Shown here one piece after another: positions 4,302 through 60,763 of a DNA stretch of 64,000 nucleotides. The DNA lies in the NCBI GenBank assembly GCA_964588165.1, contig CAZPMS010000003.1, positions 74,031-138,030 on the forward strand, written 5' to 3'. The position numbers were made by a program, and so were the translations under genes. The DNA comes from an uncultured Gammaproteobacteria bacterium. Lineage in GTDB: Bacteria; Patescibacteriota; Patescibacteriia; UBA1558; UBA10009. Within the stretch, counting starts at the first letter, position 1. Each line of letters starts with the position of its first letter. Below the pieces are notes generated by a model, which made no database searches, was not told where the DNA came from, and saw only the letters and a list, made by a program, of their open reading frames with translations.

Positions 4302-4883
4302 TTACCTCTTTGCCCACTGTGGCGCACGTCTGGCTCTTTTTAAGCCAGGTTTTTTTCGTTCTTTTTTTCTGGAATCTCTGGTTAAATAACCTTCGCCTCT
4401 TAAAGTTTTCTTTAGGCTTTCATCCATTTTTAGTAAAACTCTGCCTATGCCATGCCTTACAGCTTCGGCCTGGCCTCTTTTGCCGCCACCAGTAACTTTT
4501 ACAGTAACTCTGTATTTGCCTAAAAAATTTAGTTTTTTAAATGGCGCTTCTACAATTTGTTGATATTCAAAAAATGGAAAATATAATTTATAATCTTTTT
4601 CATTAACAATAATTTCACCTTTATTATCTTTAGTATATAAACGTACTCTGGCAGTTGAAGTTTTTCTTCTGCCCACAGCATAAAGATAAGGTAATTTTTT
4701 TACCCGCTTTGCCGGAGCCGAAGCGAGGCGAGCCACCTTTTTAGGTTTTACAGCCTCTGACTCTTTTTTAACAAGAGGTTTTTTTTCGCCCGAAGCGGAT
4801 CTGCCTTTGGCGGAAGCTTTTGGTTTAGCAGGAGCTTTTTTCTCAGTTTTCTTCTTTGGAGTTGTTTTCTTAGTAGTTGGCAT
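4302..4883 (-). CDS. rpsI: 30S ribosomal protein S9 with about 60-aa lysine/alanine/proline-rich N-terminal extension
   Basis: C-terminal GGGKRGQAEAVRHGIGRVLL S9 signature; ends in the conserved ...KR; histone-H1-like N-tail. Confidence 0.9.
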   Translation of the reverse strand: MPTTKKTTPKKKTEKKAPAKPKASAKGRSASGEKKPLVKKESEAVKPKKVARLASAPAKRVKKLPYLYAVGRRKTSTARVRLYTKDNKGEIIVNEKDYKLYFPFFEYQQIVEAPFKKLNFLGKYRVTVKVTGGGKRGQAEAVRHGIGRVLLKMDESLKKTLRGEGYLTRDSRKKERKKPGLKRARRAPQWAKR

Positions 4884-22021: not shown

Positions 22022-22098
22022 GCCAGGATAGCTCAGTTGGCTAGAGCAATGCTTTCGTAAAGCAGAGGTCGTGGGTTCGATTCCCGCTCCTGGCTCCA
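22022..22098 (+). tRNA. tRNA-Thr (anticodon CGT), CCA encoded
   Basis: Manual fold. Acceptor gccagga/tcctggc, D-arm gctc-agttggcta-gagc, anticodon loop ttCGTaa with U33 and A37, variable loop aggtc, T-arm gtggg-ttcgatt-cccgc, discriminator t plus cca. One A-G mismatch tops the anticodon stem. Confidence 0.8.
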
Positions 22099-31643: not shown

Positions 31644-33243
31644 TTTTTTGAAATATTGGTTTTAAATATTTACCCGACCACTTCTTTACCATATCCACTT
31701 CTTCACATTTAGTAAGTAAGCTGATTCCCAAATAAAATAAGATGCCAATTGTTCCAGCAACTAATCCTTGCAGAAAAACACCCACAAAAGTCTGCATATC
31801 TACCATCGTTGCCATAGCCCTAAGCATTAAATAAACTACCCCGCCGGATAAAAGTGAATTAATACTTATTTTAAAAGTGGACCAAATTATTTTCTTATCA
31901 TCTAAATATCCCACCCTAAGGCGCAGTACCACCATAAGCAGTATCATATTTAAAATTGAAGCAATAGAAAAAGCTAAAGCCAACCCAACAACTCCATATT
32001 TTGAACCTAAAAAGATAGTGCCAATAATATTTATTACTATGGCTACAAAACTGATAATAACCGGCGTTTTAGTATCTTCTAAAGCATAAAATGACCTGGC
32101 CAACATAGGAATTAGGCTTTGGGCAAATAAAGAAATGGTAAACCAGCCTAAAGTTTGAGCTGTAAAATAAGTGTCAGACCAGTCAAAATTACCTGATCCT
32201 AATATTACTCTAACCAATTGAGCTCTCAGTAAAAGGATGAAAATTGAAACAGGAATTATTAAAAATATTACTCGCCTAAAATGAATAGAAAAAGCCGTAA
32301 CAAACATTCTTTGATCATGCCGTGCTAAAGCTTCAGAAAAAACCGGGAAAACCGCAATGGCTAATGAAACACCAAAAATAGATATGGGAAAACTTTGCAA
32401 GTTATTGGCCAAGTTAAAAATAGCAATAGAGCCAGCCATTAAAGTGGAAGCTACCATGGTTATAACTAACTGATTAATCTGGCCGGCTGCCAAACCAATT
32501 GTCCTGGGCAACATTAATTTTAAAACTTTTTTTACTTCTGCTGTAAACTTCCAATTAAACTTATATTTCCAGCCTGATTTTATAACTTCCGGCAGTTGGA
32601 TTAAAAAATGTAAAAAAGAACCAAAAACCACTCCCCAGGCTAAACCATTAATACCAAAATTTGGATAAAAAACAATAATACCCAAAATAATTCCTAAATT
32701 ATATAAAACTGGAGCTAAAGAAAAACTAAAAAACTTCCTTAAAGAATTTAAAATTCCACCAACCACATTGCTTAAGCCAAAAAAGATAATGGAGATTAGC
32801 ATTATCCTGGTTAAATCAATGGTCTGGTTAAGTTGGTCGCCACTAAATCCGGGCACGATTACACCCACAATCCCTGGGGCAATTAAAATAAAAACTGCGG
32901 CCAAAACAATTAGAGTAGTAACTAAATAATTTAAAATAGCATTAGAAAGCCTTAAGGCTTTAGTTTTATCTTCCAGCCAGATCCTGGTAAAAACCGGAAT
33001 AAAAGCCGAAGCCAAGGCGCCAAGAACCAAAGTGTTAAAAATTAAATCTGGCAGTTTAAAAGCGGCATAGTAACTATCTAATAAACTGCCTGCACCAAAA
33101 TGGCCGGCTAAAAGCCTATCTCTGTAAAAACCTAACAGTTTGCTGATAACTGAAAAAAAGGCAATCAAAACTGCCCCTCCGGCTGTGGTAGTAACCAATT
33201 TATTCCAAAATGACTTTAGCATAAGTATACAAATAATCCTCAA
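31627..33243 (-). CDS. murJ: Lipid II flippase MurJ (MviN)
   Basis: GAVLIAFFSVISKLLGFYRDRLLAGHFGAGSLLDSYYAAFKLPDLIFN... typical MurJ N-terminus; about 14 TM. Confidence 0.85.
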   Translation of the reverse strand: MRIICILMLKSFWNKLVTTTAGGAVLIAFFSVISKLLGFYRDRLLAGHFGAGSLLDSYYAAFKLPDLIFNTLVLGALASAFIPVFTRIWLEDKTKALRLSNAILNYLVTTLIVLAAVFILIAPGIVGVIVPGFSGDQLNQTIDLTRIMLISIIFFGLSNVVGGILNSLRKFFSFSLAPVLYNLGIILGIIVFYPNFGINGLAWGVVFGSFLHFLIQLPEVIKSGWKYKFNWKFTAEVKKVLKLMLPRTIGLAAGQINQLVITMVASTLMAGSIAIFNLANNLQSFPISIFGVSLAIAVFPVFSEALARHDQRMFVTAFSIHFRRVIFLIIPVSIFILLLRAQLVRVILGSGNFDWSDTYFTAQTLGWFTISLFAQSLIPMLARSFYALEDTKTPVIISFVAIVINIIGTIFLGSKYGVVGLALAFSIASILNMILLMVVLRLRVGYLDDKKIIWSTFKISINSLLSGGVVYLMLRAMATMVDMQTFVGVFLQGLVAGTIGILFYLGISLLTKCEEVDMVKKWSGKYLKPIFQKNGKHT

Positions 33244-33341
33244 ATATTAGTTTGAGGCATGGCAATAAAATTATACCAGAAATGATAGTTTTTGACTAGA
33301 ATAGAAAAACCCCGCACTTTATAAGTACGAGGTTTGAATTA

Positions 33342-34262
33342 CTACCAAGTAATCCTTAAGTTAGTAGCCGATAGATAAGGATGCACACTACCTTCACCAT
33401 CAGCGATTTCCCAACCGAATACTACACCTTTATGACGTCCTCTAAAATCCTGCGGCCTGATAATAGACTTCCCCGGCCTGCTATAGCCTTTATCATCAAG
33501 ATAAACGGCATTGAACTTTTCATCATTTATATCATGGTAAACTCCAACCCCCCTCAACTGCATAAGAATTGTTTTGTAAAATCCTTCCAAAAGTGTTGAA
33601 GCTTTCCAGCCTTCTGGTAAAAGTTTTAGTTTGTTTTCCCAATGCATGGATCTTGTTGTAGAACCTTGTGAACCGGGAACACCATCCAGCCTAACCAAAT
33701 ACCAGCCCCGTTCAAGGAACGGCCAATCGGGTATGCCGAATAGCGCCTGGAAAAAATATTTTGATGTCTCTTTTTTAAAAAGTGACTTCACAATATCTTT
33801 TTCTATAGGTGGATTTTCCCAATCCAATCTTCCGGGTGAATAAAATAAAAAAGTATAGTGTCCTAAAGTCACGGATGACTTGTTATCTCCTTCGAAGGGT
33901 GATTCTTGATGAAGAAGATCCAAGATATTATCCGGGAGATGGGAATATATTTCCGCCAACTCCTCCTCGCTAAACCATAACCCAAAATATTGCGACCAGT
34001 GAAAGGGTAAAAAACAATTACGCTGTAAAAAATTCATCAGCTCATCTTCAATTTCTGGGGCTTTTTCTCCGCACCTGATTATAGCTTTGGCGATCTGATC
34101 AGCTGGGTAGTCAGTATGACCAACACCATCGCGGTTGCGAATGCTTTTTAAATGAAATGTTTTAACTCCGCGTCTCGCTAATTGTTCCAGTGTGGCATTC
34201 AACTCACTATTAGGGGTTTTTACAACACTTTCTACACTTGAAACACTTTTAGGCTCACTCAT
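33342..34262 (-). CDS. Hypothetical protein (about 307 aa from internal ATG preceded by aaggag SD); GC content about 45%, no recognised domain
   Basis: The track ORF 33342-34361 runs over its own predicted promoter. The MSEPKSVSS... start has a strong SD. Trp/Tyr-rich soluble protein. Confidence 0.45.
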   Translation of the reverse strand: MSEPKSVSSVESVVKTPNSELNATLEQLARRGVKTFHLKSIRNRDGVGHTDYPADQIAKAIIRCGEKAPEIEDELMNFLQRNCFLPFHWSQYFGLWFSEEELAEIYSHLPDNILDLLHQESPFEGDNKSSVTLGHYTFLFYSPGRLDWENPPIEKDIVKSLFKKETSKYFFQALFGIPDWPFLERGWYLVRLDGVPGSQGSTTRSMHWENKLKLLPEGWKASTLLEGFYKTILMQLRGVGVYHDINDEKFNAVYLDDKGYSRPGKSIIRPQDFRGRHKGVVFGWEIADGEGSVHPYLSATNLRITW

Positions 34263-34333
34263 GATGAGTTCTCCTTTTTCCTTGGTTGTTGGCTCTCCCT
34301 TTTTGGGCTCGCCGATGAAATGAACTAAACGTA

Positions 34334-34362
34334 CTTTATAAAAATTATTAACTTTTGTCAAA
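34334..34362 (-). promoter_or_regulatory. Predicted sigma70-like promoter (TTGACA-17-TAAAGT) for the 307-aa gene
   Basis: Minus-strand reading of 34334-34362: ttgacaaaagttaataatttttataaagt. Confidence 0.3.
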
Positions 34363-34502
34363 AACCAAAAAGCTGTGCCCTACTAGGCAATGTATAGGTT
34401 ATAAAATCTTGAGGAGAGAGATTTTCCTTGGAACAACACAGGGTTGCCAAAGAAAGATTTTATAGCCTAACATCTAGCAATGGGCACAGCTTTTTGGTTT
34501 TA
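34361..34502. repeat. Approximately 140-bp hairpin: 20-bp perfect inverted repeat enclosing a second imperfect inverted repeat. Candidate bidirectional terminator or MITE-like element.
   Basis: Outer arms aaaaaccaaaaagctgtgccc (34361-34381) and gggcacagctttttggtttt (34483-34502). Inner arms ggttataaaatctt and aagattttatagcc. Confidence 0.5.
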
Positions 34503-34518
34503 AGCTTTAGCTTAAAGA

Positions 34519-34740
34519 GCAAATATTGGAGGGCGAACCGGCCTGGTGGGCCAAAGGCCCACATTATGGCCGGCAGTGGCAATAAATTCCTGGAAAACCC
34601 GAGCTTACGCCAAGGTGATATATCTAGGTTTTACTGCCTTAAGCTCTCCTTTTTATTGAAAAAAATCGCTAATCGATTAATTTATAAGGTTAGCTCTCTC
34701 TCCCTCCAATATCTGCTCTTTTTTGCCTATTTTTCAAAGA
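34519..34740 (-). ncRNA. Candidate structured small RNA (about 220 nt to the closing stem; about 380 nt if it ends at the 34361-34502 hairpin) transcribed from its own promoter
   Basis: The 5' and 3' ends pair over 15 bp (gcagauauuggaggg with cccuccaauauuugc; the single G-U wobble only forms on the minus-strand transcript). Internal GC hairpin ccggcctggtgggccaaaggcccacattatggccgg (34539-34574). No coding potential on the minus strand. Confidence 0.3.
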
Positions 34741-34748
34741 ATATATTA

Positions 34749-34777
34749 GTATAGCATATATTTAATATCTTGTCAAG
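34749..34777 (-). promoter_or_regulatory. Predicted sigma70-like promoter (TTGACA-17-TATACT) driving the candidate ncRNA
   Basis: Minus-strand reading of 34749-34777: ttgacaagatattaaatatatgctatact. Nearly identical in layout to the promoter at 35424-35452. Confidence 0.35.
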
Positions 34778-34888
34778 CTTCTTTAAATTAAAAGAACTCT
34801 ACTATTTATTTTTAGTAAAGTCCCTTTGTGTTTGCTTAATTTTAAGCAAAATTTTAAGGGCACTCGTTACTTCTAATACAACTGCCTA

Positions 34889-35356
34889 CTACTGTTCACT
34901 ACAAAGCTCATTTAAGAGCGGTCTAATCTGCCATTCCAGCAATAGATTTAAGCCGTCTGGCAACCTCTCAATACTCCTTAGAGCAAGCCTGATATTTTCG
35001 ATAAGTTGTCTTCGAAACTTATCTTGTACTTCAGGAGAGCACTGGTTAAACAAATCAACCAGTTTACTCCATTTAACTACCAGTCTAGCCAGTTCCAGAG
35101 AGCCATCGGCCCTACCATCAGGACTTACTGATGAAGCATCTCGAATTGCATCGCCAAATTCGCCACTGAGCGGGTAGAAGCATAATTCTCTAAGCTGAAT
35201 TTCAGCCCGCCATGTTCTGTACCGTGCACGAATCCGACGATAGCGCTTTCCTGTTGATAAAGCCTTATCGAAAGATCTTCGAAAAGCCCAGACTGCATTC
35301 GTAAGCATAGCTCCTACCATAATGCCAAGTATGTCGCTAAGCAGTTCTGCATCCAT
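34889..35356 (-). CDS. Hypothetical protein (155 aa) with N-terminal TM helix and Arg-rich soluble part; GC about 48%
   Basis: ILGIMVGAMLTNAVWAF TM segment; no recognised domain. Confidence 0.4.
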   Translation of the reverse strand: MDAELLSDILGIMVGAMLTNAVWAFRRSFDKALSTGKRYRRIRARYRTWRAEIQLRELCFYPLSGEFGDAIRDASSVSPDGRADGSLELARLVVKWSKLVDLFNQCSPEVQDKFRRQLIENIRLALRSIERLPDGLNLLLEWQIRPLLNELCSEQ

Positions 35357-35423
35357 CTTCTTGCCCTTTCGTGTTGTTTACCTCCAACGTCTTGTTGGAA
35401 GCTATGAATGATCTTAATATAAC

Positions 35424-35452
35424 AATATAACATATATTTATTACTTTGTCAA
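35424..35452 (-). promoter_or_regulatory. Predicted sigma70-like promoter (TTGACA-17-TATATT) for the 155-aa gene
   Basis: Minus-strand reading: ttgacaaagtaataaatatatgttatatt. Shares an aagcTTGACAa-type motif with the 34749-34777 promoter. Confidence 0.35.
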
Positions 35453-35467
35453 GCTTACTTAACAATA

Positions 35468-35530
35468 TAAAAAAGCCTTACCTAAATGTACGAACGCGCC
35501 TCGGCGCGTTCCGACAAAATAGGAAAGGCT
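35468..35530 (-). terminator. Nested hairpin terminator downstream of the DUF4012 gene
   Basis: aaaagcctt...gaacgcgcctcggcgcgttc...aaggcttttt: perfect 9-bp inner stem and 9-bp outer stem. Confidence 0.45.
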
Positions 35531-35532
35531 TT

Positions 35533-38133
35533 TTACTTGCTAATTAAAGCGCCATATGAATAATCTTTATCTAAAGCAGTTTCAAATTTTAAGAAAATAT
35601 CGCCCACTTCCATACCTTTATTGGTTGATGAATTATACCATTCCAAATCCATATTCTCCGGCAAATACAGCCGGCTTTCAAAACTGGAATTTATGACGCC
35701 TGATTGGTTTTGGACAAGCAAATTATAAGTATCTTGAGCTAAACTATCTCTAAAACCAATTGAGCCTAAAAATTTTTCAAACTCATTGGCATCTTCCACA
35801 AAATTCAATCTAAAAGGCAGTTCATAAGAAAAAGTTAAAGTCTTACTCTCCCCTACATCCAGCTGTAACCAATTGCCAAAAACTGTTTTACCAAATTCGT
35901 TATTAATACTGGTATTTGATTTTGCCTCAATTAAAGGCAAGCCGCTGATTCTTAATAAATCTCCATCCTGCTTAAAACCTGGGTAAACTTCTTTAAACAA
36001 TTCAGGATCTATAACATCATAACCCGTGGCTTCTATTAACTGGCTGCCTAAAGGAACATATACTCTAATGTATGAGTTGTTTCTGACTCTTTCAAAAACA
36101 TCTTCTGGATTGCCATTATGAGTTAATGTAATAGCCGCAGTGTTTACTAAAGAACCATCCTCTTGGATGTATGAAAAATGCTGGATGTTCTGATCAATCA
36201 CCAAATCGGTTTTGCCACCGGCAATATTTGTCCTAACCACCATTAAATAATCTTTTTCATAATCTTTAAGCTCGCCGGTCCAGCCAAACTTTTGAGCTTG
36301 GTTTTGTAAATTTTCTTTTGTGAAAAAAAGTTGAATATCTTTTTTACTGAAGCTTTCATTAAAAGTTAACAAAGTTGGCAAAAGCTGATCTGTTGGGATA
36401 TCCAATAGCCTATCAATTAAAACTGGCAATAGATCACCAATAATTTTTTTGGGTCGGTTTTCTTCCCTGTCGTATTCAAACTCTGCTTCGTGCTGTAAGG
36501 CTAAAATAACATTATCCGGTGTTAAAAGCTGGTTATAAGCCGGTAACTCTATATTACCTACCACTTCTAATATCTTAGGGAGTACCGTAGCATTAATTGC
36601 AATTACACCATCATAAGTCGGCCAGCCCGATTTTTCAAATGACCACAGTAACTTTTGTGCTGAGGTTGGAAAATCCGGCCACCAGTTATGATCCCAAGGC
36701 ATCCAAGGTGTTCCCAAAAGATGCATTGGCTGGGGTGAAATTATTTTTTCTAAAAAGTCATGTTTTAAATCATAAAGTCCACCACCTGGAACTTCCATGT
36801 TGGCAATCTTTCCATCATCAACATCAACTAAGGCAAAGCTACCCAAAAAACCGCCGGTACCTCTTAATTCGTTATTGTTTTGGAAAAGAAATAAATATCT
36901 TTTAGGAAAGTCGTAACCGAGTATGGCAAAGGTTGAATCAATAAGTTGGTTAACCACATTTAAACTTTCTAATAATTCCGGCAACCTGTTTTGAATTTGT
37001 TCAAAACTTTTCTGGTATTCACTAGGTAAGCTAGAGTGATCTATTTCTGAAAAAAGTTTTAAAGCGCTTTCTAAATCAATTATGGTAGAATGCAGGCTTT
37101 CTCTTACCTGCGGTAAAGAATCTGCTATGGCATTTTCTAGATCATCTGATTTATTTAAACTGGCAAAAGTTACAGAAAAATTGGTAGCGGCACTGGAAAT
37201 TAATTCGCCTGACTCTAAAAGCTTCTTACTATCAGCAACTTTTTTGCCGGCCACAGGCAGGCTTTCTAAAAATTCAACTAATGACTGGTTATACTGGAGT
37301 AAAACATCTTGTGCCTGTGAAAAATAGCTGCTTGCCTGGCTGAAGTTTATACTGGCTGAATTCCAATCGGAAAAAGAGATGGCTTCTACAGCCTGTTCAA
37401 ATTCATTAAAAGCTTCTTCGGTTGCACCCAGTACCTGACCCTTGGTTTTTACAACTCTATCATATAAATAAATCCCTCTAATTGGTAAAACAATCAGCAA
37501 CGCTATTAAAGCAAAATTAAGTGCAGTTTTTAAATTCTGCCACCGTAAATCAATAGGCGCTGATGGCGATTCAACTTTTCTTTTTTTGATCCTAGGTTTT
37601 GGCTTAAAAAAATCAACCACCACAGCTAAATTATCTTTGAAAAAATTCCTTTTTATTAAGCTAGGCTTAGGAATTTCTAATTTTGAACTTTCTATTCTAA
37701 ATTCTTTAAAAAGATGGTCGCTTTTATTTAATTTTGACTTTGCCTTCTTACCCTTGCTTAGATCTAAAGTATATAAAGAATTATTCAAGGATTGGAAATT
37801 AACACTTGATTTGTTTTTAGCCCTATTGCTGTAAGAGATATTAATTGAATTACGGTTTGTAACTTGTTTTTCGGATTGTTGGGGTTTAATAATTTGATCA
37901 GAATCTACTTGGCCATAAATAATTTCATCCAATTCATTAATAACTGGCTTTATTTTATCCTGATTTCTTTTTAATTCTTTATCCAGTTGTTGTGAATAAT
38001 AAATTTGTTCATCTATTAAAAGATTATCCACTTCTAAACTAAGGGCCTCGGACTCGTTTTTATTCAGATTCAAACTGACATCTTTTTTAGTTGTTTTTTT
38101 CGGCCTGCCTCTTTTTTTATTTTTTTGTATCAT
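35533..38133 (-). CDS. Large membrane-anchored DUF4012-domain protein with N-terminal cytoplasmic AT-hook (glycan-locus associated)
   Basis: N-terminus MIQKNKKRGRPKKTTKK; TM LNFALIALLIVLPIRGIYLY; DUF4012 core FQNNNELRGTGGFLGSFALVDVDDGKIANMEVPGGGLYDL. Confidence 0.7.
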   Translation of the reverse strand: MIQKNKKRGRPKKTTKKDVSLNLNKNESEALSLEVDNLLIDEQIYYSQQLDKELKRNQDKIKPVINELDEIIYGQVDSDQIIKPQQSEKQVTNRNSINISYSNRAKNKSSVNFQSLNNSLYTLDLSKGKKAKSKLNKSDHLFKEFRIESSKLEIPKPSLIKRNFFKDNLAVVVDFFKPKPRIKKRKVESPSAPIDLRWQNLKTALNFALIALLIVLPIRGIYLYDRVVKTKGQVLGATEEAFNEFEQAVEAISFSDWNSASINFSQASSYFSQAQDVLLQYNQSLVEFLESLPVAGKKVADSKKLLESGELISSAATNFSVTFASLNKSDDLENAIADSLPQVRESLHSTIIDLESALKLFSEIDHSSLPSEYQKSFEQIQNRLPELLESLNVVNQLIDSTFAILGYDFPKRYLFLFQNNNELRGTGGFLGSFALVDVDDGKIANMEVPGGGLYDLKHDFLEKIISPQPMHLLGTPWMPWDHNWWPDFPTSAQKLLWSFEKSGWPTYDGVIAINATVLPKILEVVGNIELPAYNQLLTPDNVILALQHEAEFEYDREENRPKKIIGDLLPVLIDRLLDIPTDQLLPTLLTFNESFSKKDIQLFFTKENLQNQAQKFGWTGELKDYEKDYLMVVRTNIAGGKTDLVIDQNIQHFSYIQEDGSLVNTAAITLTHNGNPEDVFERVRNNSYIRVYVPLGSQLIEATGYDVIDPELFKEVYPGFKQDGDLLRISGLPLIEAKSNTSINNEFGKTVFGNWLQLDVGESKTLTFSYELPFRLNFVEDANEFEKFLGSIGFRDSLAQDTYNLLVQNQSGVINSSFESRLYLPENMDLEWYNSSTNKGMEVGDIFLKFETALDKDYSYGALISK

Positions 38134-47079: not shown

Positions 47080-47497
47080 CTCATTCAAATTTAGATGATC
47101 GCCCCGACGTTACCCTTATCGGGTAAGCCGGGGAGGAAAGTCCGAACACCAAGGTTTCCCGCTCTTAAGTGGGAGGATAATTGGTAACACCAACCGTTTG
47201 ATCTGTGAGGATTAAATAGGACAAGTGCAACAGAAAATATTTCTATTTGTGGGCCAAAGAGTATACTCTCCGCAAATTAAGAGTGAAAAGGTCAGATGAT
47301 TAGCTGACCCGTTCCTATAGTGATATAGGAAAAGAGGTAAACTTCTATCCGGTGCAATCCCAAATTTGGTAGGGAGCATGATCCCGACGGCAACGTCGGG
47401 GCTAGATAGATGATCATCCTTCGACTCACTTGAGTTCGCTCAGGACAAGTCGTAGACAGAATTCGGCTTATTAATTTGAGTGGGCAATAAAAAACCG
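47080..47497 (+). ncRNA. rnpB: RNase P RNA (bacterial type A-like)
   Basis: P4 5' strand gggAGGAAAGTCCGaacacc and P4 3' strand ACAGAAttCGGCTTAtt. P1 pairing is gctcattcaaatt with aatttgagtgggc. P3-like hairpin gttaccc-ttatc-gggtaa. Followed by an intrinsic terminator. Confidence 0.8.
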
Positions 47498-60092: not shown

Positions 60093-60211
60093 AAGTTAGT
60101 AAATTATAGCAGTTTAAAGGCTAAATTGTCAAAGAAATTAGCTATCTTGACAAAATATTCAATATATGCTATACTAATCTATTAAGTTCTTCACAAAACC
60201 CGGAGGAAGTG

Positions 60212-60763
60212 ATGAAAAAGGTATGGATATACCTGCTTATTGCGGCCTCCCTTATGGATGAGGTCGTAGTTATTATTGTTAGTTTTTTAACCAACAATGA
60301 TAAGATTCTTAGTCCAGCTATGGGAATCAGCCTTTTAAGCACAATTACAATCATTTGGTTAGTAATTCTGATTAAGCGTAATGAAAACAAGAGAAGACTT
60401 TGGGTGGGATTTACCGGAAAAGGCAGTGTATTAATAGGCCTTCTCTCAATTCTTATCTCAATTTTAGTAGTTCCCTTATTCTTCTCAATTTTAGAAAGTA
60501 CCATTGGCTTAGCTGATGGAGCTGGGTATCTTGGAATTATATTTGGAATGGCATTAGGTATGATGCCTGCTACTCTACTGGGGATAAGACCTTCCCTAAT
60601 TGCCAGTTTAGCTCCAGCCTTAGTCAACTTCCAATTGTGGCAGTTGAGCCTGGCAACATCGTTTGATCAGTATCTTCCAGTAACTATGCTTCTATGGGCC
60701 ACTGCGGCAATCTTGTCGGTTGGCACCAAGCATTACGTTGCTACAGGACGCTTAGCCCGTTGA
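60212..60763 (+). CDS. Hypothetical polytopic membrane protein; higher GC
   Basis: ATG at 60212 is preceded by ggagg (5-nt spacer). Preferred over the overlapping minus-strand ORF 60169-60627, which lacks an SD and looks like a low-complexity shadow. Confidence 0.5.
   Translation: MKKVWIYLLIAASLMDEVVVIIVSFLTNNDKILSPAMGISLLSTITIIWLVILIKRNENKRRLWVGFTGKGSVLIGLLSILISILVVPLFFSILESTIGLADGAGYLGIIFGMALGMMPATLLGIRPSLIASLAPALVNFQLWQLSLATSFDQYLPVTMLLWATAAILSVGTKHYVATGRLAR

Follow-up and report, generated by a model that had tools for sequence, protein, structure and literature searches.

Does the islet of raised G+C content that lies between murJ and a DUF4012 gene in a Patescibacteria contig (CAZPMS010000003.1) encode one accessory system, or several genes that merely lie side by side? 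In the 64 000-nt stretch of this contig that we analysed (the window), the islet occupies positions 33300–35532 and holds two minus-strand open reading frames (ORFs) of 155 and 306 aa, at 34889–35356 and 33342–34262, separated by ∼630 nt in which there is no credible ORF. A sequence-only reading had joined these two genes and a predicted structured non-coding RNA between them into a single module with the logic of a defence, type III toxin–antitoxin (TA) or retron system. Our analysis gives a different answer: very probably, the islet consists of three independent transcription units, the middle of which (34358–34786, minus strand) is an ancestral structured-RNA gene of ∼370 nt, with two orphan cassettes inserted either side of it in this lineage. 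The jump in G+C content on which that reading had drawn is real, as the islet (39.9 % vs a window mean of 34.3 %) ranks in the top 0.2 % of 2.2-kb windows, but the 45–50 % claimed overall is not reached, the highest value within the islet being the 44.7 % of the 155-aa ORF. Such a modest bump can be explained without shared function, because the islet is made up of an old RNA gene and two recent orphan cassettes.

The RNA gene itself extends over 34358–34726 (minus strand) and comprises two structured domains, D1 and D2. The minus strand of 34340–34745 folds at − 160.8 kcal/mol (z = − 11.6), and the plus strand at − 151 kcal/mol; this fold, together with compensatory changes in relatives, shows the structured minus-strand RNA that had been proposed here to be genuine. 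D1 (34508–34726, minus strand) has a ∼22-bp closing helix around a multi-way junction bearing hairpin A, a long hairpin B and a GC hairpin, C (34538–34573), the last of which had already been recognized within the helix and is present in most family members; in one subgroup, hairpin B displays a pyrimidine-rich loop, AAUCUCUUUC. The arms of the closing helix (34514–34536 and 34699–34721) are 23 nt in length and 91 % complementary, with one G–U pair and one A/G mismatch. Thus, the 15 bp originally given for this helix does not hold, whilst the observation that its G–U pair is compatible with the minus-strand transcript only does. Across the family, D1 measures 165–215 nt, and its homologues each fold singly into the same architecture; the nhmmer score of the domain is 88 bits on the minus strand. 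For the 22 pairs of the closing helix, 97 % of alignment cells are paired and 11 pairs have changed on both sides, whilst for D1 as a whole (10 relatives) the figures are 90 % of cells over 55 pairs, with 28 changed on both sides; in neither case did any of 500 shuffles equal the observed value. On the 5′ strand of D1 lies a purine tract, UGGAGGGAGAGAG (34696–34708, minus strand), whose columns are invariant in alignments A2, A3 and A8. This tract pairs with an invariant UUCGCCCUCCA at 34527–34537 in the closing helix, in which GGAGGG/CCCUCC is constant in sequence and not just in pairing, and it is also complementary to a bulge in D2.

Domain D2 (34358–34502, minus strand) is a long hairpin of four helices ending in GCUUUUUGGUUU. 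It corresponds to the nested 140-nt hairpin that had been noted before, and we found this to have 20-nt perfect outer arms (34361–34380 and 34482–34501) and 16-nt inner arms. The domain ends in an intrinsic terminator that forms the 3′ end of the RNA: a stable, GC-containing stem directly precedes the U tract, and GCUUUUUG and the U tract are invariant. The outer stem (AAAAAGCUGYGCC/GGCRCAGCUUUUU), followed by GGUUU, is likewise invariant across members, whilst the apical hairpin differs entirely in sequence from one member to another with its pairing always kept. Compensatory changes in the proposed helices across homologous loci are therefore not confined to D1, as 29 of the 44 D2 pairs have changed on both sides among 14 distinct sequences (94.7 % paired; 0 of 500 shuffles equal), with a covariation score of 0.52 vs ≤ 0.18 when partners were slid. 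All D2 homologues individually yield the same minimum-free-energy fold, and a covariance model of the domain (R1) gives 136 bits for the minus strand vs 56 for the plus strand. With plain MAFFT alignments, RNAalifold recovered the outer helices only, and covariance-model and subset alignments were required; copies of the locus from the same strain (L001–L011 of our L-numbered loci) are 100 % identical and thus uninformative for covariation. Beside the variable apical hairpin, D2 carries a 3′ bulge formed by the pyrimidine tract AAAUCUCUCUCCU (34412–34424, minus strand), which is invariant in 15 of 15 aligned sequences and unpaired in every minimum-free-energy fold of the D2 homologues.

How widely is this RNA distributed? 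By its MurJ sequence, the organism belongs with Komeilibacteria-like Patescibacteria (72–75 % identity in the best genome matches), and relatives share the gene order GT4, DUF4012, murJ, lepA. An nhmmer search with the non-coding segment matched the same DUF4012–murJ gap in L017 (E-value 1 × 10− 24), L023 and L019, and the RNA was also found in L025. Scanning metagenomes with the D2 motif returned 53 loci, 16 of them directly upstream of murJ homologues that are 50–80 % identical, and model and profile searches confirmed ∼15 distinct D1 and at least 15 distinct D2 sequences. Altogether, ∼20 distinct related Patescibacteria genomes or metagenome contigs contain the RNA, usually between the DUF4012 gene and murJ, and none has either protein. 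In L110 it precedes the gene for RNase HII, and in L130 it is situated between glmS and a membrane-protein gene. We therefore regard the RNA gene, with high confidence, as a conserved feature of Komeilibacteria-like Patescibacteria. Speaking against this is its absence within 10 kb of murJ in the close relatives L018, L020 and L021, because of which it cannot be called universal at this locus.

The domains behave as modules. In L022, D1 is followed by a plain terminator, in L101 and L146 D2 follows a different 5′ domain, and in L019, L119, L110, L130 and L026 an extra D1-like module, which the window RNA does not have, is found upstream of D1. This additional module carries the motif AUUGRGGAGAGAG and is located at ∼9275 in L019, 40–140 in L119 and 3590–3690 in L026, and ∼400–600 nt upstream of D2 in L130 and L110. 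Open frames across the RNA vary among members in strand, frame and length (29–104 aa), and because of this inconsistency the RNA does not conceal a gene; for the window, this applies equally to the plus strand, where no gene accounts for 34380–34750 and a 108-aa ORF is conserved in relatives in neither strand, frame nor length.

Upstream of the RNA, a TTGACA/TGnTATAMT promoter was present in every lineage examined, with a TTGACA/TGnTAT-type promoter at the equivalent site in L141, L109, L017, L023, L125, L022, L026, L101 and L146. Its counterpart in the window, P2 (34740–34786, minus strand), reads TTGACA-17-TATACT with TG (34748–34776), matches the sigma-70 consensus at 11 of 12 positions and is assigned to the RNA gene. 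From this predicted promoter to its intrinsic terminator, the RNA very probably forms a transcription unit of its own. A second such promoter, P1 (35416–35462, minus strand; TTGACA-17-TATATT with TG at 35424–35452, again 11 of 12), is assigned to the 155-aa ORF. Both are of the extended − 10 kind, are 81 % identical over 47 nt and are spaced 676 nt start to start; P2 is the ancestral RNA promoter and P1 its duplicate. That the islet contains duplicated sigma-70-like promoters is hence borne out, but the pair is not unique, as a third close copy exists at 60143–60173 (plus strand). This copy, CTTGACAA..AATATATGCTATACT including the spacer, precedes a plus-strand ORF (60212–60763) for a 183-aa multi-pass membrane protein, which has a G+C content of 40.8 % and runs counter to the genes around it; this too may have been acquired, with the same promoter type.

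In order to establish whether the RNA is already catalogued, it was compared with the 4227 families of Rfam 15, none of which matches it. The best matches in 33000–36000 were at chance level (E-value ≥ 0.46), far below gathering thresholds, and none covers D1; a miRNA model fits D2 merely as a generic hairpin. For eight relatives, there was no Rfam match on the RNA at E-values up to 1, the lone match being an irrelevant one to AsrC inside lepA. A scan of viral contigs for D2 returned zero matches, and a literature search found no description of such a Patescibacteria RNA. As such, the RNA belongs to no described family and represents a new family of lineage-restricted structured non-coding RNA. 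It has the attributes of the orphan structured RNAs in Rfam (the raiA motif and others), namely a predicted promoter and intrinsic terminator of its own, a length of several hundred nucleotides, a covariation-supported multi-way junction with long hairpins, invariant unpaired nucleotides and confinement to one lineage. It differs from those catalogued in matching none of them in sequence or structure, in occurring in Patescibacteria, and in its modularity, with D2 attached to varied 5′ domains and D1 to a plain terminator (L022).

As to function, the RNA may be a stand-alone riboregulator acting through the AAAUCUCUCUCCU tract, a proposal that we put forward tentatively, as possible rather than probable. 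The tract would be held out from the rigid D2 scaffold as the active element and would pair with purine tracts of the GGAGAGAG type, either in a long-range contact or as part of a switch between a state in which it is paired within the RNA and one in which it is free to engage Shine–Dalgarno-like sequences or a protein in trans. As a conserved unpaired stretch, AAAUCUCUCUCCU has the character expected of the seed of a trans-acting small RNA (sRNA). The D1 purine tract of every member contains a 9–13-bp complement to the D2 bulge, with predicted duplex energies of − 16 to − 28 kcal/mol (13 of 13 tested), and the extra upstream modules of L019, L119, L110 and L130 present 12–17 bases complementary to the bulge and its flanks. 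Over ∼450 kb of related loci, 8-mers of the GGAGAGAG type occur almost solely inside this RNA locus. The only strong complement found lies within the RNA itself, formed by the invariant GGGAGAGAG in D1 and, for some lineages, also by the upstream module; the most likely logic therefore appears to be a long-range contact, either internal or from one RNA molecule to another, or a switch between a sequestered and a free tract. A triple helix of the purine and pyrimidine tracts was also considered on the basis of strand polarity and dropped, as the bulge is antiparallel-complementary, in the Watson–Crick sense, whereas the pyrimidine triplex motif calls for a parallel orientation.

A number of observations weigh against this mechanism. 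Among the start-codon and ribosome-binding sites of the 64-kb window, no mRNA target stood out above random background. The purine and pyrimidine tracts are both invariant, so covariation cannot test their pairing, and the D1 tract is mostly paired within the D1 closing helix. The D1 of L026 contains a degenerate GGGAAAAAG yet the bulge is retained, and L101 and L146 also keep the bulge despite having a different 5′ domain without the purine tract; as these three loci preserve it without an intact D1 partner, it can be argued that the partner of the bulge lies outside D1. Finally, AAAUCUCUCUCCU formed part of the metagenome search pattern, making its invariance partly circular for those members; this invariance holds in the four genome loci that were found via murJ.

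Hfq-independent sRNAs with C/U-rich seeds are known from other bacteria, and include RsaE/RoxS, hairpins of RNAIII, and LhrC. In common with these, the RNA described here has an unpaired CCUC-containing motif on a stable stem-loop beside the terminator, complementary to Shine–Dalgarno-like GGAG. The window RNA is, however, much larger and has an extra junction domain, its candidate seed is a bulge instead of a hairpin loop, and the best complement of its tract is internal. Dimer and multimer self-assembly has recently been shown for other large ornate bacterial RNAs. That the present RNA might be a Patescibacteria-specific modular class of this sort, with GGGAGAGAG and CUCUCUCCU in long-range or intermolecular contact to form a conformational switch or dimers/multimers, and with a housekeeping regulatory role connected with cell-envelope genes in organisms for which very few regulators are known, seems to us doubtful. 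The explanation as a whole, with a riboregulatory mechanism included, we judge on balance to be probable.

Several alternatives were weighed alongside it. It is conceivable, albeit unlikely, that the RNA serves as a scaffold for protein binding or as a sequestering RNA (e.g. 6S-like, or with a ribosomal or RNA-binding protein as its partner), whose invariant tracts would be protein sites. Invariance of sequence, as seen in both the GGAGGG/CCCUCC of the D1 closing helix and the bulge, typically marks protein contacts, the promoter is a strong one that looks constitutive, and D1 recalls 6S RNA (RF00013) in size and in having its 5′ and 3′ ends in a long closing helix, as do its stand-alone gene and what appears to be high expression. 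Nevertheless, neither RF00013 nor any other Rfam ribonucleoprotein family matches at E-values up to 10, the interior of D1 is branched into covarying hairpins in place of the open bubble of 6S RNA, D2 is an additional conserved domain, and there is no co-conserved candidate partner protein in the neighbourhood.

Position relative to murJ suggests another possibility, namely that the RNA is a cis-acting leader of the murJ–lepA operon, with D1 as sensor and D2 as terminator platform, that has been severed in the window by insertion of the 306-aa gene. The RNA immediately precedes murJ in 16 of 18 metagenome members, as it does in every genome member, sharing its strand and ending in a terminator; the neighbourhood is one of cell-envelope genes (GT4, DUF4012 and murJ, with glmS in L130), and the conserved bulge and purine tract could pair alternatively. 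In disagreement with this, however, a TGnTATAAT promoter, which a riboswitch leader should not have, lies between the D2 terminator and murJ both in the window and in relatives. In the window this promoter (TAGTCA-17-TATAAT with TG) and the adjoining 5′ untranslated region (UTR) hairpin occupy 33238–33298 (minus strand) and constitute the ancestral right boundary; in L109, L141, L119, L019, L025, L125 and L023, TGnTATAAT is similarly followed by the GCCUCAAA...UUUGAGG hairpin before murJ. Moreover, although murJ is directly downstream in most RNA members, other genes take this place in L110 and L130, and the window tolerates a 1.06-kb insertion between RNA and murJ. With the bulge outside the terminator stem there is no obvious antiterminator, and no riboswitch family matches. 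We consequently hold a leader function to be improbable. The hairpin GCCUCAAA..UUUGAGG, which sits just upstream of the murJ start codon (33238–33257, minus strand) and is conserved in relatives, may serve to control translation of murJ.

Turning to the proteins, the lack of any recognizable domain in either was confirmed, with no match in Pfam, PADLOC, PHROGs or NCBIfam, and tblastn found neither in any of the relative loci. The 155-aa protein is Arg-rich with a hydrophobic N-terminal helix; amongst 5.8 billion proteins, its sole match was itself, and AlphaFold2 (single sequence) gave an all-helical model of low confidence [predicted local distance difference test (pLDDT) score 46]. Its gene occupies a 676-nt unit bounded by P1 and P2, of which the downstream copy matches the ancestral RNA promoter of relatives, and we are thus confident that it is a lineage-specific insertion that brought a copy of the RNA promoter with it to its upstream position. 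The left boundary of this cassette is the DUF4012 terminator hairpin (repeat I4; 35470–35534, minus strand), which comes immediately after the DUF4012 stop at 35533; its arms, of 15 nt and 93 % complementary, flank a GC hairpin.

The Trp/Tyr-rich product of the longer ORF measures 306 aa from an ATG or 339 aa from an upstream TTG, and the shorter version is preferred because GGAG is found eight bases before the ATG and homologues begin MS. Word-indexed homologue searches with the proteins gave self matches only, and a profile search added nothing useful; amongst 1.84 billion cluster representatives, however, the 306-aa protein has four distant relatives (28–34 % identity; E-value 5 × 10− 7 to 7 × 10− 4). 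As these share 22 invariant residues (alignment A1), the family is real but very rare. Its sequence profile produced only chance matches to the PDB (E-value ≥ 0.23), and the AlphaFold2 model from a five-sequence alignment was unusable (pLDDT 35). The homologues (L012–L016), which lie on short contigs or, once, beside ribosomal-protein genes, occur as solitary genes, each furnished with its own promoter and with a terminator upstream, and the RNA accompanies none of them.

In the window, too, the 306-aa gene forms a self-contained cassette of ∼1.06 kb (33302–34362, minus strand), with a promoter at 34333–34361, a 5′ UTR motif at 34288–34314, the ORF and a terminator at 33307–33335; the promoter, which had been noted as the third in the islet, matches the consensus at 10 of 12 positions. 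The closest relatives are L109 and L141, whose murJ is 80 % identical; in both, the D2 end GCTTTTTGGTT directly abuts CTAGCCAAAAAC..TGGTATAAT..murJ, with the murJ promoter within ∼60 nt of the RNA terminator. The matching TTCTAGTCAAAAAC..TGGTATAAT of the window is at 33301–33270, past the cassette. Because the D2-to-CTAGCCAAAAAC junction of these relatives continues in the window only at 33301, 33302–34362 is a 1.06-kb insertion. Both proteins are accordingly products of accessory, acquired genes, as had been surmised.

The 5′ UTR motif (GGCGAG-hairpin-GAGCC) is common to the 306-aa gene and three of the four distant homologues, in the order GGCGA, variable hairpin, GAGCC, RAAC (L012 ∼55–85, L013 ∼228–262, L016 ∼590–625). 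Examples are CGGCGAGCC-CAAAAAGGG-AGAGCCAAC and CGA-AUCCU..AGGAU-GAGCC; the stem co-varies, with possible tandem G–A pairs beside an outer GGC/GCC helix. It is possible that the motif binds a protein or mediates autoregulation in this orphan family. Contigs carrying these exact two proteins are one strain, 100 % identical over 2.4 kb, the two exceptions being a scaffold gap and an in-frame deletion of 27 nt from the 306-aa gene. The deletion, carried by one population of the strain, removes IVKSLFKKE between short AGAYA repeats (window 33747–33794; L002 ∼7560). An apparent frameshift of the gene in L004 proved to be a scaffold gap of Ns (4359–4398) and not a mutation. As this gap falls exactly at the deletion site of the other assembly, the site at 33747–33794 is suggested to be polymorphic in the population.

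Could the RNA and the two proteins still form a single accessory module (type III TA, retron-like or another defence system), with the RNA controlling or templating an effector? They are close together on the same strand in a patch of higher G+C content, share promoters and stay together in all copies of this strain; both proteins are without known domains, and a structured RNA beside small uncharacterized genes is indeed what type III TA systems and retrons look like. The association, however, does not extend beyond the strain: the RNA recurs in ∼20 lineages and is kept there without either protein, the 306-aa homologues are solitary, and each unit has a promoter and terminator of its own. 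Nor does the RNA contain the tandem antitoxin repeats of type III systems, as Tandem Repeats Finder reported nothing beyond an AT repeat of 8 nt in the promoter, and a repeat scan revealed no direct repeats in the RNA. No ToxN/AbiQ-type endoribonuclease was recognized, neither protein matching a defence model of PADLOC or a family of Pfam or NCBIfam and the structure models being too poor for fold assignment, and the two ORFs and the genes next to them showed no reverse transcriptase domain. The single-module interpretation was therefore abandoned as highly improbable. Least credible of all is that the hairpins are mobile-element remnants (a repeat like a miniature inverted-repeat transposable element, or an attachment site) that brought in both genes, since the long perfect nested inverted repeats, the higher G+C content and the insertion-prone gap that might suggest it are opposed by a copy number of one in the window and zero in viral contigs, by synteny across genomes whose murJ is 50–80 % identical with compensatory, strand-specific changes, and by a conserved promoter and U tract in an element that is present where both genes are absent.

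The gap between the DUF4012 gene and murJ is an insertion hotspot that collects accessory genes. In relatives it ranges from 12 nt to 3.5 kb and contains different, unrelated ORFs or nothing. Within L017–L035, it is 12–127 nt in some and 0.5–3.5 kb with unrelated ORFs in others, encoding a 355-aa secreted protein and a LOG-like protein in L019 and a membrane protein of 217–240 aa in L032, L033 and L035. In L135, ∼1.2 kb between RNA terminator and murJ (1240–2480) holds structured-looking GC-rich segments (GCUAGUCCGAAAAAGGAGUCGGCGG...), for which an ORF scan found no long ORF and Rfam no match. Elsewhere in the window, the only catalogued RNAs are tRNA-Thr (22022–22098) and a bacterial class A RNase P RNA (163 bits; 47086–47482, plus strand), the latter on the opposite strand to its surrounding genes.

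The genomes of Patescibacteria, also known as the candidate phyla radiation, are tiny; almost none of these bacteria have been cultured, and very few regulatory RNAs have been described from them. An RNA of 300–470 nt with covarying domains, a conserved promoter and a position beside cell-envelope genes is thus a new target for structural and functional work, and family catalogues should include it, so as to keep the stretch from being taken for empty intergenic DNA or for spurious ORFs. A caution can also be drawn from the locus, in that proximity and a compositional bump made three unrelated units resemble one defence-style module. Beyond this, it exemplifies how orphan genes enter a streamlined genome at an intergenic hotspot, as complete cassettes of promoter, gene and terminator, one insertion having duplicated the promoter of the neighbouring RNA gene.

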